Shown: positions 18,614 to 49,835 of the stretch, one piece after another
Numbering within the stretch: the stretch's first letter is position 1
Layout of the letters: the number at the start of each line of letters is the position of its first letter
Source of the DNA: Pyrodictiaceae archaeon
Lineage (GTDB): Archaea; Thermoproteota; Thermoprotei_A; Sulfolobales; Pyrodictiaceae
Reading direction: 5' to 3'
Assembly (NCBI GenBank): GCA_027036135.1
Contig: JALVSY010000007.1
Location: forward strand, 484,880-548,879
Length of the DNA stretch: 64,000 nucleotides
Notes under the pieces: generated by a model
The model's input: the letters and a program-made list of their open reading frames with translations, nothing else
Database searches by the model: none
What the model was told of the DNA's origin: nothing
Made by a program: the position numbers and the translations under genes

Positions 18614-18632
18614 TACAAGAATAAGATTAATC

Positions 18633-21311: not shown

Positions 21312-21367
21312 TGTGTGCAAACATGGTTATTAGAATATAAAATATAAAGACGATTAGGATGAAATAG

Positions 21368-26201: not shown

Positions 26202-26447
26202 TCTCTTCGTTCTTGCAGACAAGCGTGCATAGTGTCGGAGACTGTGAGATGGTGAGACCTTGTTTCACGATTTTATCTTTTGGGAATTATATTGGGTTAT
26301 TTGTGCATTTGTGGCCTTATACTAGGCGTAAAGGTTTTCGGTTGAGGGACGGATTTTTATGCTGTCTTTAATTCTGTGCGGCGGAGGACTTGTATGGGCT
26401 GTTATGTATGTAGTGCTTAGTAGTCTTGGTGCTGGTTTGGTTATGCC

Positions 26448-28809: not shown

Positions 28810-29024
28810 TCATGTGTAGTATATTGTTGTGCTATCTCTTATGGCAAGTAATAGTAGGCCGGAAACGATAGTAAATAAGATAACGATGTCTCATAGCGTA
28901 TAGCTTGGTGCAGCGTCTTAATAAACGATGGTCACATGGTTTACATCTTTCTTTAGCCATGTTCTTTAAATAAAAGGATGACGGGTAGTGCCTGGCTGCC
29001 AACAGTCTTACCGGTTGTCATGCA

Positions 29025-29807
29025 ATGGTCAAGGTTGTTGAGGCTACGAGGCCCCAGGTAGTATTCCACCTAGCAGCATTAACCCCAGTTTCTGAGAGCT
29101 TTTCACCAGCCAGTAACCTATGCAGAGATAAACTATATTGGACAGTAAACCTGCTCGAGGCTCTCCGGAGACACGGCTTTGAGCAACTTCGGCTCTTCGT
29201 ACTAGCTGGCACCACGGAGATGTACGATACCCCGGAACCTATTGAGGATGGCCGGGCTTTTAGCCCAAAGAGCCCCTATGCGGTCAGCAAAGTCGCTGCA
29301 ACGTACTATAACGAGTATATGTGGCATACATACAGGATGCCGACAGTAACAGTTATCCCCACAAATACCTACGGGAGGGCACATGTGGGACAGAGACACT
29401 TCTTCATAGAGAAAATAATTACCAGCATGCTCCTCGGTGCCAAGGAGATAAAACTAGGCAACCCAGAGACCATAAGAGACTGGATGTTCCGCGAAGACCA
29501 CGTCAATGCATACATAAAGGTAATGGAGGCAGCACTTAACGGAAAAGAAGTATTCGGTCAAAGATTCTACTTCGGTACAAGCAAGGACTATATAACCAGA
29601 GAGACGTTCGAAAAAGTTAAGCGGCTCATAGGCTGGGAGGGCCGTGCTATTTGGAACGTATACCTACGCCCAAATGATAGCAAAAGAATAATCGTCAACC
29701 CCGAGAGAGCAAAGAAAGTACTGGGCTGGGCTCCGCGCTACAATCTCGAGGAAGGGCTACGAAGAGCCATAAACGAGTGGAAAGAAGTACTCAGCCTAAC
29801 CTCATAG
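29025..29807 (+). pseudogene. 5'-truncated NDP-sugar dehydratase/epimerase (extended SDR)
   Basis: FHLAA and SPYAVSK present but N-terminal GxxGxxG absent; compensating frameshifts around 29100-29141. Confidence 0.75.
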
Positions 29808-31181
29808 CACTTGTGTTATTATCTTGTCTAGCTCTGGGTGCCTCGCTGACCTAAGATGCCTCAGTAGTAGCTCGCGTAGCCTTTGCGCTATCTCCCTCTC
29901 CTCCTCTACGAGGTTTTGTTTTTCTCCCGGATCCCTGTCTATTTTGAAGAGCTCTCTTTGATCATGGTGCTTTGCGCCGCACCGAGGACATTTCTCTGGC
30001 CGATTGTGCATGAAACTTTCAATATACTTCCATGATCCAGCGATTATGCCGAAAAGCGTATCTAGCCCTGGCTTATCGGCCACCATCCCGAAGTAAAGAA
30101 CTCGGTTCCCATCCATGTCGGGGGCATTGGGCAATGAAAGGTCTAAGCCGTCCCATCTCCTAGAAAGCCTTCTATATAGCTCCTCGTCTATTGCACCAGA
30201 TACACGTAGGATGCCGAAAATTGTTGGCGCGACATCAACTAGTGAGACGCGATTAAGCATGATTGGTTCCTCTCTCCCTGCAGGTTTTATAGCAAGGAAG
30301 GATCTAATTACCTCCTCGTGTACTGTGTGGTGATCGAAGAAGGCGCCGTGTTCTCCTAGCGACTCGCCGTGATCAGAATAGATAATGATTAATGTGTCAT
30401 CGTATAGGCCCGTGTCACGTAACTTGTCTATGAAGAGGCGAAGCGCCTCTCCGACGCTGCATGCTGCTGCCTGGTACCTTTCAATAATGTCTTCGATTGT
30501 GTGGGCTCCCCAGGCTACTAGGTCGCGTAAGTAGCGCCTCCACTGCTCATCTATTACTTTCTCGAGGAGAACCGAGAGCGGTGTACCGGGCCGGCGTTTA
30601 GGGCTACAATGGGTTACGAGATAAGGTGTATGTGTGTCCCAGATATGCACAAATGCTAGGAATGGTTTCTTCGCCCCCTTTAGGCCACGCAATACTTGAC
30701 CAAGAATGGTGATAACGGGAGGATAAGGTGTCGGAGGATTTCGGAAAAATGCATGAGCTATCTTTCGCGAAGCCCGTAGCGCGGCGTGCTTTGCAACGTA
30801 ACTAAGCTTTATCAATCCGTGGCGCAGGGCTGGCAGCTCTATGTATCTTTTGAAGCCTCTACGATGCCAACGTCCAAGAATATCATAGGCCATTGTCTCG
30901 TAGCCATTAGAGGCAAGCACTTCGGGTAGCCAATTATCCCTTGTCCTAAGCCTAAGTAACATTGTCTCGGTTCCTGTAACCCATGGTCCATGGCGTAGGA
31001 TGCCGTGCCTTACCGGGTACATGCCAGTAAAAACCGTTGTAACTACGGGATCCGTTCCGTAGAGAGGTGTGTAGACCTCTTTGTAGACTAGCCAGTCAGA
31101 GCCAAGTGCACTAGAAACGTATCGGGCATAGTCGCTTCGTAACGCATCTATGTGAATAATCAATATATTGGGTCTAGCCAT
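29802..31181 (-). CDS. sulfatase-like AlkP superfamily protein
   Basis: PNILIIHIDALRSD, TDPVVTTVFTG (no CxPxR), WDTHTPY, SDHGE, DPGEKQNL. Confidence 0.85.
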   Translation of the reverse strand: MARPNILIIHIDALRSDYARYVSSALGSDWLVYKEVYTPLYGTDPVVTTVFTGMYPVRHGILRHGPWVTGTETMLLRLRTRDNWLPEVLASNGYETMAYDILGRWHRRGFKRYIELPALRHGLIKLSYVAKHAALRASRKIAHAFFRNPPTPYPPVITILGQVLRGLKGAKKPFLAFVHIWDTHTPYLVTHCSPKRRPGTPLSVLLEKVIDEQWRRYLRDLVAWGAHTIEDIIERYQAAACSVGEALRLFIDKLRDTGLYDDTLIIIYSDHGESLGEHGAFFDHHTVHEEVIRSFLAIKPAGREEPIMLNRVSLVDVAPTIFGILRVSGAIDEELYRRLSRRWDGLDLSLPNAPDMDGNRVLYFGMVADKPGLDTLFGIIAGSWKYIESFMHNRPEKCPRCGAKHHDQRELFKIDRDPGEKQNLVEEEREIAQRLRELLLRHLRSARHPELDKIITQVL

Positions 31182-31495
31182 ATCTTACCCCATTAATCGT
31201 GTCGTATTATCCAAAACATAGCACTTGACTACGTGCCTTCCTTAATATGAGTTGAGTACCTGTAGCTATGTAGCAACGAGCCTAGTATAGTTACGACGGA
31301 GGATATACGAGAGAGGCACTTGCTCCGCCTAGCTATGGCTTAATTAAGGCAATGATTCAATCAAGTCCAGCATGAGGTATCTTTGTTACTAGTGATATTA
31401 GATCCATCATGAAGCTCGCTTTATATTGTGAAATATCCCACCTTAACTATAATGTTGATGACCATGTGACCATGTTGGCCACCTCATCGTCTGCA

Positions 31496-32080
31496 TTATT
31501 GTTTTCTTAGCTCTGCGTATAGCTTGTATAGCTCGTCTATTCTCTTATTTGTCCCGTCAATTCTCTTGTTTATTTCCTCTATCTTGACTAGCAGGGTTTC
31601 TTGAACTCTATCAATCCTCCTATTAGTCTCCTCAATCTTGGCTAGCAAGGCTTCTTGTACCTTGTCGATTCTCCTATTAGTATCGTCTATTCTTCGGTTA
31701 GTCTCCTCGATCTTTGCTAGTAGGGTGGCTTGGACGGAATTTATTCTTGCTGATAGAGTTTCTTGTACCTTGTCTATTCGTTTATTTGTTTCCTCTATCT
31801 TGGCCGATAGCGTCTCATGTACCTTGTCTATTCTCTTGTTAGTCTCATCTATTCTCTTGTTTGTTTCATCTATTCTCTTATTGGTTTCCTTTATTTCGTC
31901 TCCTAGCTCTCTCCTTGTCTCCCGTATCTCTTCCCTTAGCTCCCGTGTCTCCTTATGGGTTAGGTCTAGGTAGAGGAGCAGAATATCCTCTGTGCTAAGC
32001 TTTTGCTTCTTCTCAAGCTTCTCTAGAATCCTCTTAGAAACCTGGCTAAGCACAGTAGACAATACCGCTTCCTCGGCCAA
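31496..32080 (-). CDS. paREP15-like coiled-coil repeat protein, copy 1
   Basis: KLSTEDILLLYLD head then RIDETNK repeats; start set at the TTG GCC GAG shared by all three copies. Confidence 0.8.
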   Translation of the reverse strand: MAEEAVLSTVLSQVSKRILEKLEKKQKLSTEDILLLYLDLTHKETRELREEIRETRRELGDEIKETNKRIDETNKRIDETNKRIDKVHETLSAKIEETNKRIDKVQETLSARINSVQATLLAKIEETNRRIDDTNRRIDKVQEALLAKIEETNRRIDRVQETLLVKIEEINKRIDGTNKRIDELYKLYAELRKQ

Positions 32081-32319
32081 GCGCCTTGCCCCGGGGGTAC
32101 CTATTAGTTGTAGGACCATAATTACTTTATTAGGGGATGCCTCGGCTGGCTTAGGGTTTTTCGTTTTCCTCGGCGGCTCCGAGGGTGTGGTTCCCTAGTG
32201 CTGTTCCTGGCTTTTCTTCCTGGTTCCTGGCTGTGTTCCTGGAGCGGCTGCACGGTGATGGCTGGGCACTATTTTCTACCTCCCGGGTGTTCACCCTAGG
32301 TGGCAGGGGTGGTTCTTGT

Positions 32320-33399
32320 TTGAGGGGTGTCTTGCTTCATGGGGGGCTTGGTACCCGGTTGAGGCCTTTGACTCATACTGGTCCTAAGCAGCTTATCCGT
32401 GTCGCTGGTAAGCCGGTTTCTCAGTGGGTGTTGGAGGATCTCCGTGACGCTGGTGTAAGGGAGATAGGAGTGGTTCTTGGCACAGTGTCTCCTCTCCGTG
32501 TCGTGGAGTACTATGGTGATGGCTCGTGGCTAGGGGTTGAGCTGACCTATATTTATCAAGGATACCCGTATGGCTTGGCTCACGCCGTTTATCTTGCCAG
32601 GGACTTTGTCGGGGATGAGCCCTTCGTGGTGTATCTCGGCGATAATATCCTGGCTGGTGGTATCAGGGAGTACGTGGAGAGGTTCTTGGAGAGCGGCGCC
32701 GACGCCATGGTCTTGCTCGCGGAGGTTGAGGACCCGCGGCGCTTCGGGGTAGCAAAGTTCGATGAAGGGGGCCGTCTCGTTGGGCTTGTCGAGAAGCCCC
32801 GTGTACCGCCGAGCAACTACGCGCTCGTCGGGGTCTACATGTTCCGCCCACCCCATATCTTCCGAGCTATTGAGGGCCTTAGGCCTAGTTGGCGCGGGGA
32901 GCTCGAGATAACCGATGCTATCCAGCGCCTCATTGACTGGGGCCTAAGGGTAGACTACGCCGTCGTGGAGGGGTGGTGGAAGGACACAGGGACTCCCGGT
33001 GACATTCTCGAGGCTAACCGGTTGCTCCTCGACGAGAAGATACCCGGGGCCCGTCTAGAGGGCGTGGTGGAGCCCGGTGCCCGTGTAGAGGGGAGAGTGG
33101 TTGTCGAGGAGGGTGCCCGTGTAGAGAGTGGCGCGGTTGTCCGTGGCCCCGCCTATATTGGCCGGGGGAGCAGGGTTGGGCCGGGCACCTACGTGGGGCC
33201 TTACACGAGTCTGGGCTGGAACACCGTGCTCGAGAACGTGGAGATAGAGAACAGTGTGGTAATGGATGGCGCTAGGCTGGTCAACGCTGGCCGCGTCGTG
33301 GATAGCCTCGTGGGAGCCGAGGCAGAGATAGCCACGAGCACCGGGCTGCCGAGCGGTCACCGGTTCATAGTCGGCGAGAAGGCGAGGATAAGGCTCTAG
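32320..33399 (+). CDS. rmlA: glucose-1-phosphate thymidylyltransferase (long form)
   Basis: GGLGTRLRPLTHTGPKQL, YLGDN, EKP, RGELEITD, WWKDTG, hexapeptide-type tail. Confidence 0.93.
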   Translation: MRGVLLHGGLGTRLRPLTHTGPKQLIRVAGKPVSQWVLEDLRDAGVREIGVVLGTVSPLRVVEYYGDGSWLGVELTYIYQGYPYGLAHAVYLARDFVGDEPFVVYLGDNILAGGIREYVERFLESGADAMVLLAEVEDPRRFGVAKFDEGGRLVGLVEKPRVPPSNYALVGVYMFRPPHIFRAIEGLRPSWRGELEITDAIQRLIDWGLRVDYAVVEGWWKDTGTPGDILEANRLLLDEKIPGARLEGVVEPGARVEGRVVVEEGARVESGAVVRGPAYIGRGSRVGPGTYVGPYTSLGWNTVLENVEIENSVVMDGARLVNAGRVVDSLVGAEAEIATSTGLPSGHRFIVGEKARIRL

Positions 33400-33415
33400 G
33401 AGGGCATGGGTAGCC

Positions 33416-34432
33416 GTGAGGGTGCTGGTTGCTGGCGGCGCGGGGTTCATGGGTAGCAACTTTGTCCGCTACCTCCTAGGGCGCTACCCGGACGCCGAGG
33501 TACTGGTCTATGATAAGCTTACGTATGCTGGCCGCCTGGATAACCTAAGGGACGTGTACTGGGACAAGAGGTTCAGGTTCGTCCTCGGAGACATTGGTGA
33601 CGAGGAGCGACTAATGGAGGTTATAAAGAGCTTTGAACCGGACGTGATAGTTAACTTCGCGGGCGAGACCCACGTAGACCGGAGCATCAATGAGCCAGCC
33701 CCCTTCCTGGAAACCAATGTTGTTGGCGTGTTCCACCTACTCGAGGTTGCTAGGAGGCTCGAGGTGCCCCGCCTAGTACATATAAGCACCGACGAGGTCT
33801 ACGGCGACCGATGGAACCTCCCCCCGGCCAGTGAGGATGATTGTTTCAGGCCGAGTAGCCCCTACTCTGCTAGCAAGGCCTCCGGGGACCTACTATGCCA
33901 AGCTTATTGGAGAACCTATAGACTACCAGTAATTATTCTACGGCCCTCTAACAACTATGGCCCATACCAGTACCCGGAGAAGCTCATACCACGGACAATT
34001 ATCCGCGCACTACACGACAAACCGATACCGCTCTACGGCGGGGGATGGCAGAAACGGGACTGGCTATACGTAATGGACTTCGCGGAGGCCCTGGATACTG
34101 TTATGAGGCGGGGCTCCCCGGGGGAGGCCTACAACGTGCCAGGCTTCAACGAGAAGACCAACCTGGAGGTCGTGAGGGACATACTGAGGCTCATGGGCAA
34201 GCCAGAGACACTGATAAAGACGGTGGAGGATAGGCCTGGTCATGACCGCCGCTACGCAATGAGGGGCGAGAAGATACTCTCCCTGGGCTGGCGCCCAAAG
34301 ACACCGTGGCACAAGGGACTAAGGGAGACCATTGAGTGGTACCTGGGGAATGAGTGGTGGTGGCGCCCCCTCCTAGGCGACGAGTTCTTCGCCGAGGACA
34401 CGCCCTGGGAAACGAGGCGACAAAACGGCTAG
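33416..34432 (+). CDS. rmlB: dTDP-glucose 4,6-dehydratase
   Basis: GGAGFMGSN, DKLTYAG, THVDRSI, STDEVYG, YSASK, DRPGHDRRY. Confidence 0.96.
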   Translation: MRVLVAGGAGFMGSNFVRYLLGRYPDAEVLVYDKLTYAGRLDNLRDVYWDKRFRFVLGDIGDEERLMEVIKSFEPDVIVNFAGETHVDRSINEPAPFLETNVVGVFHLLEVARRLEVPRLVHISTDEVYGDRWNLPPASEDDCFRPSSPYSASKASGDLLCQAYWRTYRLPVIILRPSNNYGPYQYPEKLIPRTIIRALHDKPIPLYGGGWQKRDWLYVMDFAEALDTVMRRGSPGEAYNVPGFNEKTNLEVVRDILRLMGKPETLIKTVEDRPGHDRRYAMRGEKILSLGWRPKTPWHKGLRETIEWYLGNEWWWRPLLGDEFFAEDTPWETRRQNG

Positions 34433-34444
34433 GAGGTGTAACCC

Positions 34445-35347
34445 GTGGCGCGCGTACTCCTGACCGGAGCCGGGGGCCTCCTCGGCCAGAAACTGGTAAA
34501 GGTACTAGCGGATAGGGGCCACGAGGTAGTAGCTGTTTACCGTGTCCACGAGCCCCCAGCGGCCCAAGGCGTTAAGCCGGTTAGGCTGGACGTGACTGAC
34601 TGGGTTAGGCTAGAAGACCTAGTGCTAAAGACCCGGCCAGGCACAATAATACATGCAGCGGCCTACACTGATGTGGATGGCTGCGAGAAGGACAAGCAAT
34701 GGGCGTGGAGAGTAAACGTCGCCGCCACTAGGAGCATAGTAAGGGCAGCAAGGGTCGTCAACGCGCACCTAGTCTACGTCTCCACTGACTACGTGTTTGA
34801 CGGCGAGAAGGGGATGTACAGGGAAACCGATACACCGAGCCCCGTGAACTACTACGGGTTAACAAAGCTCGTAGCAGAGGAGCTTGTGAGGAGCAGCGAG
34901 CTACTATACACAATCGTTAGGCCGAGCGCGATATACGGTATAGGGGGCTCCAAGAAGAGCTTCGCCGAGTACGTAGCAGAAAAACTAGCCCAAGGGGAAC
35001 AAGTCAAGGCACTCACAGACCAATACGTGTCACCGACCCACAACGAGCTATTAGCGGAGGCCCTAGCCGAGATAATAGAGCTCAAGCCACTAGGCACGCT
35101 CCACGTAGCAGGCCCCAGGATGAACCGATACGAGTTCGCCAAGAAAATAGCAGAGACACTAGGCCTACCAACAAGCCTAGTAAAGCCAGCAACCATGGAG
35201 GAGATGCAGGGGAGATGGGTAGCGAGGAGACCCAGGGACTCAAGCCTAGACACGGGCAAGGCGCAAAACCTACTAGAGACACCTTTCAGCGACATAGACG
35301 AGGCAATGAAGAGACTAAAGAGAGACTGGGAGAACAAGGGTAGGTAG
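34445..35347 (+). CDS. rmlD: dTDP-4-dehydrorhamnose reductase
   Basis: GAGGLLG, AAYTDVDGCE, STDYVFDG, YGLTK. Confidence 0.95.
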   Translation: MARVLLTGAGGLLGQKLVKVLADRGHEVVAVYRVHEPPAAQGVKPVRLDVTDWVRLEDLVLKTRPGTIIHAAAYTDVDGCEKDKQWAWRVNVAATRSIVRAARVVNAHLVYVSTDYVFDGEKGMYRETDTPSPVNYYGLTKLVAEELVRSSELLYTIVRPSAIYGIGGSKKSFAEYVAEKLAQGEQVKALTDQYVSPTHNELLAEALAEIIELKPLGTLHVAGPRMNRYEFAKKIAETLGLPTSLVKPATMEEMQGRWVARRPRDSSLDTGKAQNLLETPFSDIDEAMKRLKRDWENKGR

Positions 35348-35349
35348 CG

Positions 35350-35904
35350 ATGCCCTTCGAGTTCCAGAGACTAGAGATACCCGACGTAGTACTGGTAAAG
35401 ATAAAGATGTTTAGCGACGAGCGCGGCTTCTTCGCGGAGCTCTACAAGAGAACACCGTTCCTAGCCAGCGGCATACCCTATGACTTCGTCCAGGTCAACC
35501 TCTCCTACTCCAGGCGGGGCGTGGTTCGGGGGCTTCACTACCAGCTCAAGCCCCACGAGCAGGGCAAACTAGTGTATGTTCTACGGGGCCGGGTAGTGGA
35601 CGTGGCCCTCGACATTAGGAAGGGGAGCCCCTGGTACGGGCGACACGTCATGGTTGAGCTTACGCCGGGTACTGGTCTCTGGGTTCCGCCGGGCTTCGCG
35701 CACGGGTTCCAGGCGCTCGAGGACACGTTGTTCCTCTACCTAGTAACCAAGGAGTATAACAGGGAGGCGGAGAGGTGCATACGCTGGGACGACCCAGGGC
35801 TAGGAATACAGTGGCCCATCAGAGACAACGTGGTGATCAGCGACAAGGACAAACAATGCCCAGGGTTCAGGGAGGCGGAGACAAACTTCGAGTACCCAAT
35901 ATAA
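35350..35904 (+). CDS. rmlC: dTDP-4-dehydrorhamnose 3,5-epimerase
   Basis: DERGFF, RGLHYQ, QGKLV, PGFAHGF, SDKD. Confidence 0.96.
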   Translation: MPFEFQRLEIPDVVLVKIKMFSDERGFFAELYKRTPFLASGIPYDFVQVNLSYSRRGVVRGLHYQLKPHEQGKLVYVLRGRVVDVALDIRKGSPWYGRHVMVELTPGTGLWVPPGFAHGFQALEDTLFLYLVTKEYNREAERCIRWDDPGLGIQWPIRDNVVISDKDKQCPGFREAETNFEYPI

Positions 35905-36316: not shown

Positions 36317-36955
36317 TTACCGCCCTCTTAGCTCTGCGTATAGCTTGTATAGCTCGTCTATTCTCTTATTTGTTTCCTCGATCTTAGCAAGTAGTGTTTC
36401 CTGAACCCTATCAATCCTCCTATTTGTCTCTTCTATTTTTGCTAGTAATGCTTCCCGTACATGATCTATCCTAGCCGATAGAGACGTCTGTATAGAATCT
36501 ATCCTCTTGTTTGTCTCATCTATTCTCTTATTGGTCTCCTCTATTTTTGTTAATAGTGTTTCTTGTACTTTGTCTATTCTTTTATTGGTTTCATCTATGC
36601 GTTTATTTATCTCCTCTATTTTGGCCAAGAGGGTCTCTTGTACGCGGTCTATCCTCTTATTGGTATCGTCTATGCGCTTATTTGATTCATCTATTTTAGC
36701 CAATAATGTCTCCTGCACGTTACCAATTCTCTTGTTCGTCTCGTCGATGCGTTTGTTCGTCTCATCTATTCTCCTATTGACCTCTCTGATCTCTTCCCTT
36801 AGCTCTCTCCTTGTCTCCCTTATCTCCCTATGGGTGAGATCAAGGTACAATAATATCAGATCTTCTGTGCTGAGCTTCTTCCCCTTCTCCAGCTTCTCCA
36901 ATATCTTCTTAGAGACCTGGCTAAGAACAGAAGACAATACAGCCTCCTCGGCCAA
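36317..36955 (-). CDS. paREP15-like coiled-coil repeat protein, copy 2
   Basis: Same head and RIDELYKLYAELR tail as copy 1, with more repeat units. Confidence 0.8.
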   Translation of the reverse strand: MAEEAVLSSVLSQVSKKILEKLEKGKKLSTEDLILLYLDLTHREIRETRRELREEIREVNRRIDETNKRIDETNKRIGNVQETLLAKIDESNKRIDDTNKRIDRVQETLLAKIEEINKRIDETNKRIDKVQETLLTKIEETNKRIDETNKRIDSIQTSLSARIDHVREALLAKIEETNRRIDRVQETLLAKIEETNKRIDELYKLYAELRGR

Positions 36956-38994: not shown

Positions 38995-39149
38995 CCGTAA
39001 ACAAGTAGACACGATTCTCCTGAAGCCTCTAGAGTAAGAGTATGTTCTTGTTAATGCACTATTATCCTATACCTATAGGTGGTATAAGGAACGTACTGCG
39101 GCTTGGGTAGGCTTATTGGTGGTTATCCGTGGCTCCCTTGATAGAGGGT

Positions 39150-39401
39150 ATGGGCTTGGGTAGTTATGTGACTGTCTCTGTGAAGGTGAGGCGGGAACTT
39201 AAGGATGAAGCTGAGAGACTGGGTATCAAGCTATCTGAGGTTCTTCGACGGGCGCTTGAGGAGGAGGTTGAGAGGCGTAGGCTGGAGATGCTTAAGAAGG
39301 AGCTTGAGGAGCTAAGCGATGCCCTAGAGAGGATAGACGTGGAGCGATTTGTGAAGTATATTAGGGAGGATAGGGAGAATGACCGAGAGGTTATTGTTTG
39401 A
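39150..39401 (+). CDS. VapB-type antitoxin
   Basis: YVTVSVKVRRELK..AERLGIKLSEVLRRALEEEV...IREDRE. Confidence 0.85.
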   Translation: MGLGSYVTVSVKVRRELKDEAERLGIKLSEVLRRALEEEVERRRLEMLKKELEELSDALERIDVERFVKYIREDRENDREVIV

Positions 39402-40388: not shown

Positions 40389-40790
40389 ATGTATTTATTC
40401 GACGCGAGCGCCTTGGTGAACCTGGTTAAGAAGGGCAGGGTTAAACCACTCGCCAAGGGGGCTACACTAGATCTGGCACTCTATGAGTCCCTGAACGCCC
40501 TGTGGAAAGAGTACAGACTGCTGGAGAGGATCGACGAAGAGACAGCACTGAGGTTCGTGGACATTATCAGCGACGTGTTCAGCGTTATAGATGTGTTGTC
40601 GGTGAGGGGCCTTGAGAGAGAAGTCTTTGAGCTAGCAGCTAGGGATGGCTTCACGGTGTACGATGCATCCTACCTATACGTGGCGATGAAGAATGGCTAC
40701 ATGCTCGTAACCGATGACAAGGAGCTTAGAAACAAGGCCTCAAAATACGTAGAGACAGTCTCCAGTAACGAGCTAGCAGATAGACACTAA
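40389..40790 (+). CDS. VapC PIN-domain toxin
   Basis: YLFDASAL, YESLNALW, TVYDASY, LVTDD all intact. Confidence 0.9.
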   Translation: MYLFDASALVNLVKKGRVKPLAKGATLDLALYESLNALWKEYRLLERIDEETALRFVDIISDVFSVIDVLSVRGLEREVFELAARDGFTVYDASYLYVAMKNGYMLVTDDKELRNKASKYVETVSSNELADRH

Positions 40791-43230: not shown

Positions 43231-43440
43231 CTATATATAGCCTAGCGCTCTTAGTCTCTCCTTCACCTTTTCTTCGTCCTCTTTGCTCATTTCAGGGGTT
43301 TCTTCCTCTGTTCCAAGGGCTTCCTGTAGTAGGAACTCTACTAGCTCCTCTACCGTGTTAAAGCCTCCCTGTTCCTCTATGAATTGCTTTGCTTTCTCGT
43401 AAAGCTCCTTGCTTATAGCTATGGTTACTTTCTCGGCCAT
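43231..43440 (-). CDS. CopG/RHH protein with ERLRALGY tail
   Basis: VTIAISKELYEK...FNTVEELVEFLL...KVKERLRALGYI. Confidence 0.85.
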   Translation of the reverse strand: MAEKVTIAISKELYEKAKQFIEEQGGFNTVEELVEFLLQEALGTEEETPEMSKEDEEKVKERLRALGYI

Positions 43441-43460
43441 GTCTCGTTCCCTGGTCTTGG

Positions 43461-44819
43461 TTATTTGTGCTGGGTTATTATTTGTTCTAGGTGACTTCTT
43501 ATCTTCTCTATCCTTATCTCGCCACGGTTACCCTTCTCTAGGGTCTCCTCTGGGTCGTAGACTGTGTAGACGCCATGCCAATCATGCACCGCGTCGTCTG
43601 GTCCTCGGTCGTTCTCCTCTAGGTAGTTGGTTGGCCAGCCCAGGGTCCCGGCTGGGCGCCACCATAGGTCGTCTAGGTAGAGCATGAGGTCTGGCGGATC
43701 CCCATTGACCTCGGGGTATATCTCGGCTGGGCGGTAGGCCTTGTTTAGCCATTGCTCGTTGCTTGGGCCCTTGATTTTCTCTAGGTCTCTGCGTAGCTGC
43801 TCTAGTGTCTCCTCGTAATACTTGGGCTCAACGGCGCCCTTTTTCTCCCTGCCCTTGAGGTTTATGAATACTCTGCTATAGTATCCTCCCCACGCCCAAG
43901 CAATAGTATGCTCCCAGTCCACCATGTCCTCGCGTAAGTCGGTGCCCGGTTTCAGCCCAGCCGGGTCTACTTTTAGCTTGAGGTAGCCTTGCTCGATTAG
44001 CCACTGATTTAGGAGGAAGGCCCCCTTCATTGCCTTTATCCCGTGGTCGCTCACTATAACGATTACCGTGTCTCTTGGCAGTTTCCTGTGTAGTTTCTCG
44101 AACCACTCGTCTATCCTTCGGTAAACCTCTGGTACTACCTTGCTGTATTCGGGGTGGTGCTCGTACCTTGGGTGGGTTTTGTCAAAGTATCTCCAGAAAG
44201 CGTGGTGGGCGCGGTCAACGCTTATCTCTACGTGGATGAATATGTCCCATTGCTTCCTCGTAGCAAGGTACTCTACTTGGCGCAAGTGGTTGTCAAGCAT
44301 CTGTAGTAGCTCTCTAGCCACCCGGGACTTGTCGTGGCTCCGATAAACTATGTCGAACCTTGTCGGCCCAGTCGCGGCCTCTAACTCCTTTCTCAGCCAT
44401 GGGGGGAAGGTGTAAGGCTTCTCCGGCCCAGGCGTAGTGAAGTCCGTGACCATGAAGCCATGGACAGGCTTCGGAGGGTAAGTCGGGGGTACTCCGTAGA
44501 GGCCTACTCTTAGACCCCTCTTCCCCGCCCAGTCCCAGATGGTCTCGGCCCGTATGCTCCTGCTATTCACTATATAGTAGCTGAACTCCCCTGGGCGGCG
44601 GTGTCTGAACCCGTAGACGCCTAGCTCTCCCGGCGTCTTGCCCGTGAACATGGTCATCCAGGCGGGAACCGTTATGGGTGGGTGGCAGCTCCTCATAATG
44701 TATCTCTGCGACTCTGCTACTAGGCCAGAGATGTAGGGGAAGTAGCGCTCACCAAGCTCGGTATAAAGCACGCTAGGAGGCAACGAGTCCAGCCCGAGGA
44801 CGAAGACTCTTCTAGTCAT
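43461..44819 (-). CDS. AlkP superfamily (type I phosphodiesterase-like) protein
   Basis: VLGLDS, PPITVPAWMTMFTG, DRAHH, VSDHG, GPDDAVH. Confidence 0.9.
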   Translation of the reverse strand: MTRRVFVLGLDSLPPSVLYTELGERYFPYISGLVAESQRYIMRSCHPPITVPAWMTMFTGKTPGELGVYGFRHRRPGEFSYYIVNSRSIRAETIWDWAGKRGLRVGLYGVPPTYPPKPVHGFMVTDFTTPGPEKPYTFPPWLRKELEAATGPTRFDIVYRSHDKSRVARELLQMLDNHLRQVEYLATRKQWDIFIHVEISVDRAHHAFWRYFDKTHPRYEHHPEYSKVVPEVYRRIDEWFEKLHRKLPRDTVIVIVSDHGIKAMKGAFLLNQWLIEQGYLKLKVDPAGLKPGTDLREDMVDWEHTIAWAWGGYYSRVFINLKGREKKGAVEPKYYEETLEQLRRDLEKIKGPSNEQWLNKAYRPAEIYPEVNGDPPDLMLYLDDLWWRPAGTLGWPTNYLEENDRGPDDAVHDWHGVYTVYDPEETLEKGNRGEIRIEKIRSHLEQIITQHK

Positions 44820-44907
44820 CTTGGTTAATACACCCCGCAGGACAACAACCTGGTGAGGAGCCCTAGGACTGGATAATAAATTGAGAAGATGTCTTGACTC
44901 TACGCCT

Positions 44908-45465
44908 CTACTTGCTTACATAGTTTATCTTCTCAAGTATTAAGCCTAGGAGCTTCTCAGTGTTCTCCTCAACGGTATTGTTAACAGTGTCTAGGACTAT
45001 GTCCGGGTTCTCGGGTGGCTCGTAGGGGTCGCTTATCCCGGTGAAATGCTTAATCTCCCCCCTCAGCGCCTTCTTGTACAAGCCCTTCGGGTCCCGTTTG
45101 ATGCACTCTTCCAGGGGGCACTTAACATAGGCCTCTATGAAGGGAGCCTCCTCCTCAACAATCCTCCTAACCTCTGCCCGGACATCGCGGTAGGGCGAGA
45201 CGAAGCTACACAGGACTATCACGCCGTTCCTAGCCAGTAGCCTGGCTATCCACGCGACTCGTAGGAGGTGTCTTCGGCGCTCCTCCCTGGTATAGCCGGC
45301 ATCGGGGTTAATGGTTCTCCTAACCCAGTCGCCGTCAAGAACCTCTACGCGGTACCCCATGGCTCTCAGCTTGTCGGCAACTCTAGTAGCTATTGTGGTC
45401 TTCCCGCTACCGGGCAGCCCAGTGAGCCAGACAACGAGGCCACGGTCAAGGCACTTAGCAGGCAT
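44908..45465 (-). CDS. cysC: adenylyl-sulfate kinase
   Basis: WLTGLPGSGKTT, LDGD, SFVSPY, RDPKGLY, FTGISDPYE. Confidence 0.96.
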   Translation of the reverse strand: MPAKCLDRGLVVWLTGLPGSGKTTIATRVADKLRAMGYRVEVLDGDWVRRTINPDAGYTREERRRHLLRVAWIARLLARNGVIVLCSFVSPYRDVRAEVRRIVEEEAPFIEAYVKCPLEECIKRDPKGLYKKALRGEIKHFTGISDPYEPPENPDIVLDTVNNTVEENTEKLLGLILEKINYVSK

Positions 45466-45537
45466 GTCTTAGCAACCCCTCCAACTATGCACTTCCAAAG
45501 GGGACTAAGTATCCATTGCTCACTGTTAGAGGCCTCT

Positions 45538-46326
45538 TTATAGCCCTGCCAGCACCTGGGCTATCTTCATGAGCGCAACTATTACCATGGTTGCTGCCAG
45601 CGCCCTTTGCGCTAGTACTGTCCGTGTCCTTCGGAGCAAGTGGGCTGCGAGAGGCGTAGCTACGAGAGCACCAAGGGCAAGTACAAGGGCCATTAATGGG
45701 TCTAGGTGCCCTGATAGTGTGTATACGAGGGCTACGAGCACAAATGCCGGAAGCTTGACCAGTGGTGTAACGGCTATAGCGCTTCGGAGATCAAGGCCTA
45801 TTTTCCTCTGAGCAAGCACTACTACCGCGCTGTAGCCCCCGCCTATGAGCGCCTTGTATGCCCCGGCGAGCACGCCATAGAACACTGCTACCCAGCTCAT
45901 ACTCGTCGGTGAGGGGTCTTCTCTGTGACTATGTATGCTCATGTACAGCATCGTTGCTAGGGCTAAGAGGAGTACAGAATATGATGAGACCACTACGCTA
46001 CGAGGGAGCTTGGCAGCTATGGTAGAGAGCCCTAGTGCTGCTATGAGCGACGCGGACGCGAATAACGCTAGTGCTCTTCTAGCCTCGATTGCTTTAGGGG
46101 AAATATTGCCTAGCCTATGATGCATAGCTAGCACCGGCAACGCGGAAACAACTTGTGCTAATGCGGCGGCGCCAGCCACGCTGCGCGGATCATAGCCCAG
46201 TACACCGCAGAGGACTAGGCTAGCTACTAGCCCGAACCCCGCGGCAAAGGAGTAATCGAGGAGCGCTGCCACGAACCCTGTGACGAGCCAAAGCGTTACC
46301 GAGGCATAGCTCATTACTAGTTTCAC
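45538..46326 (-). CDS. TauE/SafE (TSUP) family membrane transporter
   Basis: Hydrophobic two-repeat protein with Gly-rich loops, next to cysC. Confidence 0.7.
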   Translation of the reverse strand: MKLVMSYASVTLWLVTGFVAALLDYSFAAGFGLVASLVLCGVLGYDPRSVAGAAALAQVVSALPVLAMHHRLGNISPKAIEARRALALFASASLIAALGLSTIAAKLPRSVVVSSYSVLLLALATMLYMSIHSHREDPSPTSMSWVAVFYGVLAGAYKALIGGGYSAVVVLAQRKIGLDLRSAIAVTPLVKLPAFVLVALVYTLSGHLDPLMALVLALGALVATPLAAHLLRRTRTVLAQRALAATMVIVALMKIAQVLAGL

Positions 46327-46336
46327 CGGAGTAGTT

Positions 46337-46401
46337 ATTAATTAGATTTAATTATGTCTCCCTACGTGGCCTAAGAGGCAGGCATTAATAAGATTTAATT
46401 A
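46337..46401. promoter_or_regulatory. divergent promoter with an 18-bp direct repeat
   Basis: ATTAATTAGATTTAATTA (46337-46354) and ATTAATAAGATTTAATTA (46384-46401) between divergent operons. Confidence 0.55.
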
Positions 46402-46441
46402 ATCAGCTACGTATTGCTCCCTTCCCGGGGCGCTAGGAGAC

Positions 46442-46678
46442 ATGGGCGAGCAGGCTAGGCGCGCCAAGTACACCACTGTCTCGATACCTGTCACTCTCTA
46501 TGAGAGGATTAAGCGCCTCATAGAGGGAACAGGCTTCACGAGCGTATCCCAGTTCGTCGCCTATGTTTTGAGAGAAGTTGTCGCGGAGATGGAGGAGGAG
46601 AAGTTAAGGAGCGAGACTGTTACCGAGGAGGAGAAAAGGGCTATTATTGAGAGGCTTAAGCGCCTAGGCTACCTCTAA
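46442..46678 (+). CDS. CopG/RHH protein with ERLKRLGY tail
   Basis: YTTVSIPVTLYERIK..TGFTSVSQFVAYVLRE...IIERLKRLGYL. Confidence 0.88.
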   Translation: MGEQARRAKYTTVSIPVTLYERIKRLIEGTGFTSVSQFVAYVLREVVAEMEEEKLRSETVTEEEKRAIIERLKRLGYL

Positions 46679-46710
46679 TCCCAAGGGTTATAAGCAAGGG
46701 GTGAACTGCC

Positions 46711-47871
46711 GTGGTGTCCAGACCCCATGGCGGGAAACTAGTTGACCGGACAGTCTCTCCTCGCCGAGCCGAGAGGCTAAGGGAAGAGGCAAAGGAACTC
46801 CCAAGGATAGAGCTCGGCTCCGGGCTAGCAGCCGATGTAGCCAACATCGCTCACGGAGTCTATAGCCCGCTTGAAGGCTTCCTCGTACAAGAGGACTATC
46901 TGAGCGTCCTCGACGATATGAGGTTGAGCAACGACTTGCCCTGGACAATACCGATAGTCCTAGACGTTGACCCAGGAGAGATAAGCGGGGTCAAGGAGGG
47001 AGATGATGTGGCACTCTATTACCGGGGCGAGCCCCTTGCACTAATGCGCGTTGAAGAGATATATGGCTGGGACAAGAAGGAATACGCCCAAAAAGTCTTC
47101 AAGACAACCGACCCTCGTCACCCCGGTGTGAAGAAGACCTTTGTACGGAAAGAGCTACTAGTAGGAGGCCCAATAGACCTAGTGGGAGAGATGCCGGAGC
47201 CCTTCGAGAAGTACCGGCTATGGCCCAAGGAGACAAGGGTACTGTTCGGGGCACGTGGCTGGAAGACCATAGCAGCGTTTCAGACGAGGAATGTGCCTCA
47301 CCTAGGCCACGAGTACGTCCAGAAGGCCGCTCTAACGTTTACAGATGGCTTGTTCATAAACCCGCTCGTGGGGTGGAAGAAGCCAGGCGACTACCGCGAC
47401 GAAGTCATAGTAGAGGCCTACCAGGCACTAATCAAGCACTACTACCCACGGGACAGCGTTGTCTTCAGCGTACTCCGCATGGAGATGAGGTACGCGGGGC
47501 CAAGAGAAGCGATACACCATGCAATAGTTAGGAAGAACTTCGGAGCAACACACTTCATAGTAGGCAGAGACCACGCAGGAGTCGGGAACTACTACGGCCC
47601 CTATGAGGCATGGGACTTGTTCAAAGAGTTCCCAGACCTGGGCATCACGCCGCTCTTCGTCCGCGAAGCCTTCTACTGCAAAAAGTGCGGCCAAATGGTA
47701 AACGAGAAAATATGCCCTCACAGCGAGGAATACCGAGTAAGAATAAGCGGGACAAAGCTACGCGCGATGATAAAACGAGGAGAAAAACCACCAGAGTACA
47801 TGATGCGACCAGAAGTCGCAGAAGTAATCCTAAGACACCCTAACCCCTTCATATCAGAGGATGAACTATAG
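46711..47871 (+). CDS. sat: sulfate adenylyltransferase
   Basis: PHGGKL, YSPLEGF, FQTRNVPHLGHE, YAGPREA, FIVGRDHAG, ISGT. Confidence 0.97.
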   Translation: MVSRPHGGKLVDRTVSPRRAERLREEAKELPRIELGSGLAADVANIAHGVYSPLEGFLVQEDYLSVLDDMRLSNDLPWTIPIVLDVDPGEISGVKEGDDVALYYRGEPLALMRVEEIYGWDKKEYAQKVFKTTDPRHPGVKKTFVRKELLVGGPIDLVGEMPEPFEKYRLWPKETRVLFGARGWKTIAAFQTRNVPHLGHEYVQKAALTFTDGLFINPLVGWKKPGDYRDEVIVEAYQALIKHYYPRDSVVFSVLRMEMRYAGPREAIHHAIVRKNFGATHFIVGRDHAGVGNYYGPYEAWDLFKEFPDLGITPLFVREAFYCKKCGQMVNEKICPHSEEYRVRISGTKLRAMIKRGEKPPEYMMRPEVAEVILRHPNPFISEDEL

Positions 47872-47934
47872 TAGATAATATGGCCGGATCTGCGACGGTG
47901 CCAGGTCACGACGCCTAAAGAAAGATAACACATG

Positions 47935-48402
47935 TTATTGTTTTCTTAGCTCTGCGTACAGCTTGTATAGCTCGTCTATTCGTTTGTTTGTCTCCTCTAT
48001 TTTAGCCAAGAGAGTCTCCTGCACCTTATCTATCCTAGTCGATAGGGATTCCCGCACCTCATCAATTCTTCTATTAGTCTCCTCTATCTTTGCTAATAGG
48101 GTAGCTTGTACAGAATCTATTCTAGCTGATAGAGTCTCTTGTACTTTATCGATTCTCTTATTGGCCTCATCTATTTTTGTTAGCAAAGTTTCTTTTATCT
48201 TGTCTATCCTCTTATTAGTATCGTCTATTCTCTTGTTTGTCTCTTTTATCTCTTCTCTTATTTCCCTCATTTCTTTGTGCACGAGGTCAAGATACAATAG
48301 CATCAAGTCCTCTGTGCTTAGCCGCTTTCCCTTCTCAAGCTTCTCCAAGATCCTCTTCGATACCTGGCTAAGCACCGTAGATAGTACTGCTTCCTCGGCC
48401 AA
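47935..48402 (-). CDS. paREP15-like coiled-coil repeat protein, copy 3
   Basis: Same head and tail as copies 1 and 2, fewest repeat units. Confidence 0.8.
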   Translation of the reverse strand: MAEEAVLSTVLSQVSKRILEKLEKGKRLSTEDLMLLYLDLVHKEMREIREEIKETNKRIDDTNKRIDKIKETLLTKIDEANKRIDKVQETLSARIDSVQATLLAKIEETNRRIDEVRESLSTRIDKVQETLLAKIEETNKRIDELYKLYAELRKQ

Positions 48403-48551
48403 ACCCGCAGAGCCCAAGTACTTACTAGCACTAAGTAACCATTATTACTTTATGAGAGCATTGGCTCCTGAAAAAGAAGCGATCTTTCTTAACAAGGCAT
48501 ATTGATTAATCTTATTCAGAAAGGCTTGAGGCTGGGCTACTTTTTCATAGA

Positions 48552-48662
48552 ATGTGGGACGACCTAGTAATAGCGGTGCAGATACGGAGGCTAGGGATAA
48601 GCGAAATATACTCAAACGACCGAGATTTCGACAAAGTGTCTCATATACGTAGGCTTTTCTAG
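48552..48662 (+). pseudogene. VapC/PIN C-terminal remnant
   Basis: WDDLVIAVQIRRLGISEIYSNDRDFDKVSHIRRLF*. Confidence 0.7.
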
Positions 48663-48779
48663 GGTCTTGGAGCGAAGCACTGAGATAGCGCTATGCTTAT
48701 CTCTAAGTCGACTCCTCGTTCATTAGAAACAAGGTTTCCCTGAATTAAATTGTTAGGGTCAGAGGCCCGGCTCTAGTAT

Positions 48780-49835
48780 GTGGGAGGGTGGTGCTATGTG
48801 CATATATGCACAGAGGTAGCGGAGAAGCTACTACGTATACCTAGGCTCTATGTTGTCTATCACTGGGATGCTGATGGTGTTGCCTCGGCTGCGCTCGTCC
48901 TGCGCCACTTGGGCTCAAGGGTTAGGGGGCTTGGGGTGCCACGTATAGGCGTCTATGCTGCTGACGCAGTTCCCTTACCCGGTAGCGGTGCTGCATTGTT
49001 GGTGCTTGATTATGGTCTCCCGGGCTCTGTGTACGAGGAGCTTGCCCGGAGACATGGTGGGGAAGTACTGGTTATTGATCATCACAGGGTGGCTCCTCCT
49101 AGTGGGGGAGGCGTTGTTTATTGTAACCCGGTTGCAGTGGGTCTTGGCGGGGAGGAGGACTATCCTGCTAACAGTGTCCTCGTTTACAGGCTCCTCAAGT
49201 CACCACGTGACCCGGGTGACCGTGTCCTAGCGGCTCTAGGTGTGGCTGGCGACTTGGCGCCGTACATCGATGCTGGGAGGCCTCATCCTGGGCTCCGAGT
49301 TGCCTCGGAGCTGCTAAGGGGCACTGGGATCTCCCTTAGAGAGCTCCGCCGCGTAGCGGAGTCTATTGATTCTTGTTACCGCTTACTGGACGAGGACTGT
49401 CTACGCTATGCTCCGCGGAGGGCAGCAGAGGACCCCGCTGGGCTAGTGAGTGATGAAAGGCTGCTCGGGGCCCGGGAGAGGGCTGAGAGGCTCGTGGAGG
49501 AGGCCATGGAGAGGGCTCAGCTGCTCTCGGAGACCGGGAAGGTACTGGTCTACTTCCTTGAGATGGATGCCTATGTTACGAGCGCTGTTGGTAGGAGACT
49601 AGCGGCTAGGAACCCGGACAAGGTGGTTGTATTGGTGCATAGCTTGCCTAGCCAGGGCCGGGGCACTATATATGCGAGGAGTATATCCCATGGGCTCAGC
49701 AGCGTGGCTGATCTGCTGAGGGCTAGGGATGTGAGGGTCGCGGGTAAGACAAACGTACTCGTAATAGAGTACAGCGGCGAGGAGTACGAGGAGCCACTAA
49801 GGATTCTCCTCGAAGCGATTAAGGTGGCACTATAA
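48780..49835 (+). CDS. DHH family phosphoesterase
   Basis: HWDADGVASA, VLD, VIDHH, GVAGD. Confidence 0.88.
   Translation: MGGWCYVHICTEVAEKLLRIPRLYVVYHWDADGVASAALVLRHLGSRVRGLGVPRIGVYAADAVPLPGSGAALLVLDYGLPGSVYEELARRHGGEVLVIDHHRVAPPSGGGVVYCNPVAVGLGGEEDYPANSVLVYRLLKSPRDPGDRVLAALGVAGDLAPYIDAGRPHPGLRVASELLRGTGISLRELRRVAESIDSCYRLLDEDCLRYAPRRAAEDPAGLVSDERLLGARERAERLVEEAMERAQLLSETGKVLVYFLEMDAYVTSAVGRRLAARNPDKVVVLVHSLPSQGRGTIYARSISHGLSSVADLLRARDVRVAGKTNVLVIEYSGEEYEEPLRILLEAIKVAL

Follow-up and report, generated by a model that had tools for sequence, protein, structure and literature searches.

What purpose does activated sulfate serve in an archaeon that encodes an ATP sulfurylase (Sat) and an adenosine 5'-phosphosulfate (APS) kinase (CysC)? 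The question is raised by a 6.6-kb locus at positions 43231-49835 of the window, the 64,000-nucleotide stretch analysed here from the genome of a Pyrodictiaceae archaeon, where sat and cysC stand together with a gene for a protein of the alkaline phosphatase superfamily, here called AlkP. Many archaeal and anaerobic bacterial genomes carry sat and cysC although no use can be recognised for the product, 3'-phosphoadenosine 5'-phosphosulfate (PAPS), and genome papers, such as that of Pyrodictium delaneyi, tend to annotate these genes as sulfate reduction. Our results suggest a different answer, namely that the locus is a self-contained sulfate-activation and sulfation module in which AlkP would be the sulfotransferase that consumes PAPS; we give this reading slightly less than an even chance. 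What is new here is a conserved sat/cysC partner gene that occurs across phyla, is often fused to Sat, and follows PAPS rather than APS or inorganic pyrophosphate (PPi).

The module consists of two divergent operons. The minus-strand operon contains tauE (45538-46326), cysC (44908-45465), AlkP (43461-44819) and, as its last gene, RHH1 (43231-43440), with intergenic gaps of 72, 88 and 20 nt, while RHH2 (46442-46678) and sat (46711-47871) form the plus-strand operon. A DHH phosphoesterase gene (48780-49835, plus strand) lies downstream of sat. The family labels are firm, as judged by profile scores, for Sat, CysC, TauE and AlkP. Sat (386 aa) matches PF01747 (E 2.3e-95) and PUA_2 (E 2.2e-56) and exceeds the NCBIfam cut-offs of NF003166 (550.3 vs 387) and TIGR00339 (412.9 vs 322.95). 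CysC (185 aa; PF01583, E 3.1e-61; TIGR00455, 217.8 bits vs 138.7) shows the P-loop GLPGSGKTT. TauE is a TauE/TSUP permease of 262 aa (PF01925, 72.7 bits vs a cut-off of 32.6), and AlkP has 452 aa (PF01663, E 3.5e-46, 158.8 bits vs a cut-off of 23). The DHH protein (351 aa) barely exceeds its family cut-off (PF01368, 29.7 bits vs 28.1), and the ribbon-helix-helix (RHH) labels both fall under Pfam cut-offs: the CopG/RHH-like RHH1 (69 aa) reaches 22.7 bits with DUF6364 (cut-off 27.3) and RHH2 (78 aa) 19.3 bits with RHH_1 (cut-off 20.5). RHH1 and RHH2 are paralogues with 33% identity and are presumed to be regulators. No NCBIfam model matched AlkP, TauE, RHH1 or RHH2. An earlier note on this DNA had described the divergent operons and the DHH gene just downstream; genes and family scores bear this out, with the amendments that the RHH labels are sub-threshold and that a coiled-coil gene (47935-48417, minus strand) separates sat from the DHH gene. 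The source genome, labelled G000, is 99.6% complete, and all genome-wide searches described below were run on it.

By profile, by metal ligands and nucleophile, and by core fold, AlkP is a member of the nucleotide pyrophosphatase/phosphodiesterase (NPP), or type I phosphodiesterase, family (PF01663). The match covers profile positions 1-342 of 342, and the Pfam scan gives PF01663 only, PF00884 staying at 18 bits, under its cut-off of 25. In an alignment of 30 sequences the metal ligands D11 (on the first strand), D202, H206, D258, H259 and H412 show no variation, and 29 sequences have T50 while the remaining one has Ser there; R203, N271, N320, R324 and D408 are further invariant residues, and the motif GGYYxRxFxNxxGRE is conserved as well. 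No PDB sequence was matched by the single AlkP sequence at E<=0.01; PhnA and Xac NPP were reached only by profile, where Thr50 aligns with the nucleophile Thr of both and SDHG with SDHG. The AlphaFold2 model (pLDDT 95.8) is nearest in fold to Xac NPP (Z 28.7 over 332 residues, root-mean-square deviation (rmsd) 3.3), ENPP6, ENPP4, ENPP7 and PhnA (Z 26.4), followed at a lower rank by PafA (Z 22.2) and S1 sulfatases (Z at most 21.2), all at 12-16% identity. Taken together, Xac NPP, ENPP1/3/4/6/7 and PhnA align over 331-353 residues (Z 28.7-26.4, rmsd 3.1-3.4; Foldseek E 2e-19), and Xac NPP and PhnA share with AlkP the two-metal ligand set and the Thr nucleophile. The earlier note had called AlkP apparently cytoplasmic and had pointed to a Thr as the residue to be labelled, and this agrees with the complete NPP-type site, with Thr50 and with the lack of a signal peptide in AlkP, which we read as cytoplasmic.

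AlkP also departs from NPP and PhnA, beyond the low identity and the cytoplasmic location. The TFPNH of Xac NPP is replaced by TVPAW, and in the profile sequence alignment, the only one used for this comparison, Phe71 followed by Arg72 and Arg74 stands at the position of Asn111 of Xac NPP, a residue that contacts the phosphoryl oxygen. About 100-120 residues, including the conserved GGYYxRxFxNxxGRE, are not alignable to NPP or PhnA, and the genomic partners Sat and CysC are not theirs. The closest homologues named here belong to Pyrofollis japonicus (82% identity), Pyrodictium delaneyi (78%) and Hyperthermus butylicus (75%). G000 has a second PF01663-type protein of about 280 aa (C30:9154-9999, minus strand) with the motifs PHTPSAW and SDHG, which has no tblastn match to AlkP at E<=0.001.

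The gene set is conserved among relatives. We compared 41 related genomes, 28 of them near-complete, and analysed 17 loci in windows of 10 kb to either side; these genomes are not independent, and co-occurrence among them is a pattern, not a statistical test. A strong AlkP orthologue, Sat and CysC are found in the same 16 of the 28 near-complete relatives, and none of the three is found in the other 12; mismatches in this pattern among the 41 are confined to genomes of 60-86% completeness. The only families that recur widely in the 17 loci are AlkP (17), Sat (16), RHH (14), CysC (12), DHH (11) and TauE (7). An RHH gene comes after AlkP in most relatives, and the next commonest neighbours encode NAD-dependent epimerase/dehydratases, UDP-sugar dehydrogenases, RmlC and glycosyltransferases. 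The Sat gene of one relative, G040 (C6:6456-7607), contains one in-frame TAG and may be a pseudogene or carry a sequencing error.

The same association was found in distant organisms. One genome per species was scanned and the best 80 of 582 related loci were analysed; some of the contigs are only 2-5 kb long, so neighbour counts in the 80 loci are lower bounds. The archaeal carriers belong to Thermoproteota, Bathyarchaeia, Nitrososphaeria, Thermoplasmata, Archaeoglobaceae, Thermococcus, Hadarchaeota, Methanomethylicota and several Asgard groups, the bacterial ones to Aminicenantes, Omnitrophota, Armatimonadota, Latescibacterota and others, and AlkP orthologues of Archaea and Bacteria share 40-47% identity. 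By tblastn, CysC lies within 10 kb of AlkP in 60 loci and Sat in 53, and an RHH2-type gene is present in 47, typically directly upstream of sat (36-47 for RHH-type ORFs overall). TauE was detected in 2 loci by tblastn and in 10 by clustering. The usual gene order is RHH-Sat-AlkP-CysC, with spacing mostly of tens to hundreds of bases. Genes for NAD-dependent epimerase/dehydratases occur in 23 loci, often straight after CysC, those for UDP-sugar dehydrogenases in 9 and PF00884 sulfatase-like genes in 5; AlkP paralogues stand side by side in four loci (L049, L080, L088 and L094), in glycan regions. Together with the similar neighbours in relatives, these genes connect the module to glycans and speak for the sulfotransferase reading. 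The neighbourhood analysis that the earlier note had suggested as a check was thus answered positively, with the gene set in 16 of the 28 near-complete relatives and in 53-60 of the 80 loci of other phyla.

Fusions tie AlkP to the same partners. Among representative proteins AlkP is joined to Sat, to CysC, to a nucleotidyltransferase (NTP_transferase), to a family 2 glycosyltransferase (GT2), to a methyltransferase or to a second AlkP, and of the 131 AlkP relatives of at least 792 aa all 120 that are listed are Sat-AlkP fusions. One protein of 1151 aa, P0189, combines AlkP, a pyruvate-kinase barrel and Sat; it may be a sulfate activation enzyme with built-in ATP regeneration, or a gene-calling read-through.

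Which partner AlkP follows can be seen in a census of 401 Thermoproteota genomes at least 90% complete, where AlkP was counted at E<=1e-60 and a strong orthologue at E<=1e-130. AlkP is present in 77 of the 401: in 66 of the 136 genomes with both Sat and CysC, in 3 of the 36 with Sat and no CysC, in 1 of the 50 with CysC and no Sat, and in 7 of the 179 with neither. An unpublished genome, G430, has Sat without CysC or AlkP, and leaving it out alters nothing. Both Sat and CysC are found in 51 of the 53 genomes with a strong orthologue, and the 7 AlkP genomes lacking both have weak matches of 35-41% identity, except G281 (51%, counted as strong). In AlkP genomes without an adjacent CysC, a CysC was found elsewhere in 5 of 5, and in AlkP-CysC genomes without an adjacent Sat, a Sat was found elsewhere in 4 of 5. 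Conversely, 70 genomes, mostly of family f15, have Sat and CysC without AlkP. AlkP requires the whole PAPS route and the PAPS route does not require AlkP; therefore, AlkP marks one use of PAPS. The strict co-occurrence with Sat and CysC and the rarity of AlkP in genomes with only one of them strengthen the proposal of the earlier note that AlkP consumes PAPS, as do the fusions to Sat, CysC, GT2 and nucleotidyltransferase and the paralogue clusters in glycan regions.

The by-product of sulfate transfer seems to be provided for as well. The DHH protein is likely a 3'-phosphoadenosine 5'-phosphate (PAP) phosphatase, as its sequence resembles that of MtPAPP, the PAP phosphatase of Methanothermococcus thermolithotrophicus. 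MtPAPP (8a8k) is its best PDB sequence match (E 4.8e-09), residues 21-342 aligning with 19-327, and the HWDxDG, LD, IDHH and GD motifs align; in full-length similarity and conserved metal motifs the DHH protein is of the MtPAPP type. This supports the role of PAP-hydrolysing enzyme that had been assigned to it before. According to Jespersen et al. (2023, PMC10322725), MtPAPP hydrolyses PAP specifically and is encoded beside ATP sulfurylase and APS kinase, 168 archaeal homologues were compiled, and PAP-phosphatase activity is demonstrated only for the M. thermolithotrophicus enzyme. Of the 17 related loci, 7 have the DHH gene between Sat and AlkP and 3 more have it beside Sat, and it is present in 14 of the 16 near-complete module genomes vs 2 of the 12 without the module. 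It was found in 11 of the 17 related loci and, among the 80 distant ones, in 8 by tblastn and 11 by clustering. In these 11 of 17 and 11 of 80 loci the place of a PAP phosphatase is already filled by the MtPAPP homologue, which supports PAPS consumption by AlkP, and AlkP is placed at the PAPS-consuming step more readily than at the removal of PPi or PAP.

A further point in favour of AlkP as the sulfotransferase is that no other PAPS consumer was found in our searches of G000 and of four module carriers, G004, G009, G012 and G014. In G000, PF00685 and PF13469 gave no match at E<=1, which answers a genome-wide check proposed in the earlier note, and PF03567 and PF17784 gave none at E<=0.1; the Stf0, Gal-3-O and Sulfotransfer_5 families were not part of this search. 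The four carriers show no PF13469, PF00685, PF03567 or PF17784, with PF00884 matching only weakly inside AlkP, and PF00685 was found in none of the 41 relatives. AlkP itself has no P-loop-like fold and no match to the profiles of canonical PAPS-dependent sulfotransferases (PF00685, PF13469 and relatives); it could act like a sulfotransferase and yet lie outside the PF00685/PF13469-type families. As to the window, the claim that it holds no reductase and no P-loop sulfotransferase stands for the P-loop type and for PF01507, but a sulfatase-like PF00884 protein of 459 aa (29802-31181, minus strand; 77.1 bits vs a cut-off of 25), encoded inside the glycan island described below, needs to be mentioned.

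Precedents exist for parts of such a system. Bacterial sulfation operons of the nodPQ-nodH and raxPQ-raxST type combine PAPS-synthesis genes with the gene of an enzyme that uses PAPS for one specific product; this enzyme is a P-loop sulfotransferase, a domain that AlkP does not have. The idea of an AlkP-fold archaeal glycan sulfotransferase is already in print: Agl30 (VNG1056C) and Agl31 (VNG1057C) of Halobacterium salinarum are, according to Zaretsky et al. (2025, PMC11980604), N-glycan sulfotransferases shown by deletion and by expression in Haloferax volcanii, and by analogy this precedent would support our reading. Agl30 and Agl31 share the alkaline-phosphatase-like core superfamily with AlkP, are encoded with glycosylation genes, and act, on a glycan, in a host that like ours has no described canonical sulfotransferase for that step; Agl31, like AlkP, is cytoplasmic. 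They differ from AlkP in type, being of the sulfatase/arylsulfatase family, to which AlkP does not belong, whereas AlkP is of the NPP type, and AlkP is bound to CysC, unlike Agl30 and Agl31. The term PAPS has no occurrence in that paper (PMC11980604). In control runs on Haloferax volcanii we found no PF01583 APS kinase and no PF01747 Sat-type sulfurylase, and since the glycan is sulfated there nevertheless, the donor of Agl30 and Agl31 may not be PAPS. The locus of M. thermolithotrophicus resembles ours in holding Sat, CysC and a homologous DHH-type PAP phosphatase together; its PAPS-consuming slot belongs to an AprAB-like reductase, whose product is passed to an F420-dependent sulfite reductase (PMC10322725), whereas in our genome AlkP would occupy the slot and no PF01077 was found. 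In our literature searches we found nothing that links a PF01663/AlkP-family protein to sat, cysC or PAPS.

The sulfatase-like ORF 29802-31181 is the other candidate for handling sulfate in the window, and may be an Agl31-like sulfotransferase, by analogy, or a sulfatase. It has no signal peptide (cytoplasmic), its nearest PDB sequences are S1 sulfatases, and it falls within the sulfatase/arylsulfatase family of the Agl30/Agl31 type. At the position of the sulfatase motif it reads YGTDPVV, with Thr in the formylglycine place, where sulfatases carry C/S-x-P-x-R (formylglycine Cys/Ser). By family membership, the sequences not having been compared directly, it is closer to Agl31 than AlkP is. An orthologue occurs in 1 of 40 relatives only, G021, which is also a module carrier; such rarity is as expected for a strain-specific glycan-decorating enzyme. 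Proximity and the Agl30/Agl31 precedent (PMC11980604) are its only ties to the module.

If AlkP is the sulfotransferase, we infer the following course of events. Sulfate would be brought in by TauE, whose substrate is presumed. Sat would convert it to APS and CysC the APS to PAPS, steps that follow from established knowledge of these families, for which the equivalog cut-offs are passed. PAPS would then be spent by the NPP-type AlkP, transfer being favoured over hydrolysis: the Zn-activated Thr50 would either take up the sulfuryl group, as a covalent intermediate, or pass it on directly, with release of PAP. The acceptor would be a common one, the likeliest being a nucleotide sugar or an early glycan intermediate. 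PAP would be converted by DHH to AMP and phosphate, given its homology to MtPAPP, and the two RHH-like proteins would regulate the divergent operons. Still more tentatively, AlkP of the PF01663 type may represent a third structural class of PAPS-dependent sulfotransferase, beside the P-loop enzymes and the sulfatase-like Agl30/Agl31, ancient, common to Archaea and Bacteria and as a rule either encoded between sat and cysC or joined to Sat in one protein, which makes a common sulfated precursor (e.g. a sulfated nucleotide sugar) for glycosyltransferases and whose paralogues are position-specific. Such a class would explain how PAPS is spent in many prokaryotes without a known sulfotransferase or PAPS reductase.

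Several points weigh against a sulfotransferase function of AlkP. Every link between AlkP and PAPS is one of association, and the covalent sulfo-Thr mechanism, the import of sulfate by TauE and the glycan acceptor, all put forward in the earlier note, are conjectural. Phosphorus is the usual target of NPP-type enzymes, and hydrolases make up most of the superfamily; we found in the literature no described PAPS-dependent sulfotransferase with an NPP-type fold. An identity of 40-47% between Archaea and Bacteria is easier to reconcile with a small substrate found everywhere than with a glycan acceptor that varies, and the commonest fusion partner is Sat, not CysC, which also fits a remover of by-products. 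A Sulfotransfer_3 gene directly follows AlkP-RHH in G023 and G018 (36.0 and 35.1 bits vs 27), Sulfotransfer_3 fragments lie near the module in G006, and PF13469 occurs in 9 of 30 carrier genomes from other phyla, whose completeness is not known; some carriers thus have a conventional PAPS consumer. The idea that AlkP acts in place of a canonical sulfotransferase is accordingly not general, with such a gene after AlkP-RHH in two relatives and PF13469 in 9 of 30. The window, moreover, holds its own sulfatase-like candidate, ORF 29802-31181. As for reductases, PF01077 (siroheme sulfite reductase) has no match in G000, a search in which AprAB-like PAPS reductase was not included, and the contrast in PF01077 between AlkP carriers (1 of 5, not G000) and genomes with Sat and CysC without AlkP (4 of 5) comes from 5 and 5 genomes chosen by hand.

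It is very improbable that the module instead feeds sulfate reduction through a PF01507 'PAPS reductase' paralogue, with AlkP incidental. Such a route is suggested by five PF01507 paralogues in G000, none within the window (C7:559824-561194, C7:757764-759212, C16:363836-364903, C16:235979-237238 and C16:357357-358676), and by the genome paper of P. delaneyi Hulk (PMC5556600), in which Sat, CysC and PF01507 proteins are annotated as part of sulfate reduction and the strain is reported to grow with sulfate as electron acceptor. However, all five lie far under the cysH/PAPS_reductase/APS_reductase cut-offs (best scores 80.9 vs 154 for NF002537, 54.1 vs 165.1 for TIGR00434 and 34 vs 254.2 for TIGR02057) and match 'hypothetical protein' models better, only L002 passing one of these (PRK08576, 365.6 vs 290). 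They have long N-terminal extensions and a RIGCxxCP-type motif, which stands where cysH has its C-terminus. PF01507 proteins do not track PAPS, since 8 of the 12 near-complete relatives without Sat and CysC have them too. In the PAPS reductase search proposed in the earlier note, the PF01507 domain itself is present and all its copies fall below the cysH cut-offs. Further, PF01077 was not found in this 99.6% complete genome, and reduction would leave the strict linkage of AlkP to the module without explanation. The view that Sat and CysC form a PAPS-making unit that feeds no recognisable reduction pathway has held: the PAPS module exists, is conserved and is not connected to reduction, and the results for G000 argue against the sulfate-reduction annotation of P. 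delaneyi Hulk (PMC5556600). We give equally little credence to the idea that AlkP attacks the phosphorus of PAPS, frees sulfate and passes 3'-phospho-AMP to an acceptor as a nucleotidyl transferase. This would be the normal chemistry of the NPP fold, as established for that family, and would account for the need for CysC, while DHH could trim the 3'-phosphate; but sulfate would be recycled, which makes the permease TauE of the module (7 of 17 and 10 of 80 loci) purposeless, and no known class of products fits this speculative idea.

The main rival, which we consider unlikely though the one most to be reckoned with, makes AlkP a hydrolase of the PAPS cycle, which would either remove the 3'-phosphate of PAP or, as an APS/PAPS phosphodiesterase, hold the pool in check, with the true sulfotransferases elsewhere: ORF 29802-31181 here, Sulfotransfer_3 genes in others, or unrecognised enzymes. 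Fold and site of AlkP are those of the NPP and PhnA hydrolases, its conservation across domains suits a universal nucleotide substrate, the conserved Arg72 and Arg74 belong, by alignment, to the counterpart of the Xac NPP loop that carries Asn111, and canonical sulfotransferase genes stand beside the module in G018, G023 and G006, with PF13469 in 9 of 30 distant carriers. The slot of the PAP phosphatase is open in the 72 (tblastn) or 69 (clustering) of 80 distant loci with no DHH near AlkP. A second PAP phosphatase would however be redundant in the 22 of 97 loci where AlkP and an MtPAPP-type DHH share one operon, and in the 14 of 16 near-complete module genomes that have both, while a PAPS/APS hydrolase encoded between sat and cysC would set up a futile cycle. 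Nor would a housekeeping enzyme be expected to be fused to GT2, nucleotidyltransferase or methyltransferase or to form tandem paralogues in glycan regions; 70 genomes with Sat and CysC manage without AlkP, and four complete relatives (G004, G009, G012 and G014) show none of the sulfotransferase families searched. The predominance of Sat-AlkP among the long relatives (all 120 listed out of 131) could also point to a dedicated pyrophosphatase, whose removal of PPi would drive the unfavourable Sat reaction; fusions of ATP sulfurylase, APS kinase and pyrophosphatase in some algae offer a parallel, AlkP comes straight after sat in most loci, and P0206 joins it to a nucleotidyltransferase, another enzyme that releases PPi. 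We regard this as improbable all the same: of the 36 genomes that have Sat and lack CysC just 3 carry AlkP, perhaps owing to assembly gaps, and in Archaeoglobaceae and Thermoplasmata loci it stays with CysC, sometimes with DHH, while Sat is missing from the surrounding 10 kb (it lies elsewhere in 4 of 5 genomes tested). AlkP is also fused to CysC and to GT2, and an enzyme of 450 aa with a large cap domain seems an improbable design for removing PPi.

Should AlkP be a sulfotransferase, the sulfation of glycans or lipids in archaea and bacteria would be opened to study and sulfate-reduction annotations would be corrected; the family would also offer thermostable enzymes for PAPS-coupled sulfation, among which the natural Sat-AlkP fusions could be of practical use. 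Should it be a hydrolase, PAPS metabolism would still have in AlkP a standard component that had gone unrecognised.

A glycan-synthesis island of the window extends from about 16860 to 35904 and contains three GT2 genes, GT1, GT4, a flippase, an FkbM methyltransferase, a dehydratase fragment, the sulfatase-like gene, and rmlA, B, D and C. From its end to the start of the sulfate module there are 7.3 kb, and this interval holds a coiled-coil gene, a CcdA/PIN pair, an ORF without assignment and a transporter of the major facilitator superfamily. No glycan genes were found at 50-64 kb of the window, where the genes are unrelated (nickel transporter, PaREP1, PEBP, ABC transporter, UbiD/UbiA, peptidase and EMG1). 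Given this 7.3-kb interval and the lack of glycan genes at 50-64 kb, the module adjoins the island and is not within it, contrary to the earlier note, which had placed it inside. The core of the island (18000-24000) has a G+C content of 27-38% vs about 50-57% in the flanking DNA and includes an 892-aa ORF (18633-21311) that matches no Pfam family; this core is probably a glycan cassette specific to the strain and gained by horizontal transfer. A tblastn match of the G023 sulfotransferase to positions 28432-28773 (E 0.011), a candidate P-loop sulfotransferase, was rejected as spurious, as it lies in the FkbM-type methyltransferase.

The spacer between tauE and RHH2 (46327-46441) is AT-rich and 115 nt long. 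An AT-rich element, ..AGATTTAATTA.., occurs twice in it (46337-46354 and 46386-46403), the copies being 47 nt apart; the same two segments, of 18 nt each, are the arms of an inverted repeat (I7) and are 83% complementary. Judged by position and composition, the elements could be candidate TATA boxes/promoters or RHH operators. For the stretch 43231-49835 no RNA runs are listed, the runs covering it being DNA metagenome runs only.

The coiled-coil gene next to sat belongs to a family with three copies in the window (47935-48417, 31496-32119 and 36317-36955, all on the minus strand) and at least 8 paralogues across the genome, with 55-70% identity, HSBP1-like matches and 87-nt internal repeats. 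In a genome of the same genus, G004, the order is RHH-Sat-DHH-AlkP-RHH without a coiled-coil gene; the copy at 47935-48417 therefore looks inserted, and the family may be mobile. The CcdA-like/PIN toxin-antitoxin pair of the interval lies at 39129-39401 and 40389-40790, and its relatives (clusters c8 and c15) sit between tauE and cysC in G004 (locus L036).

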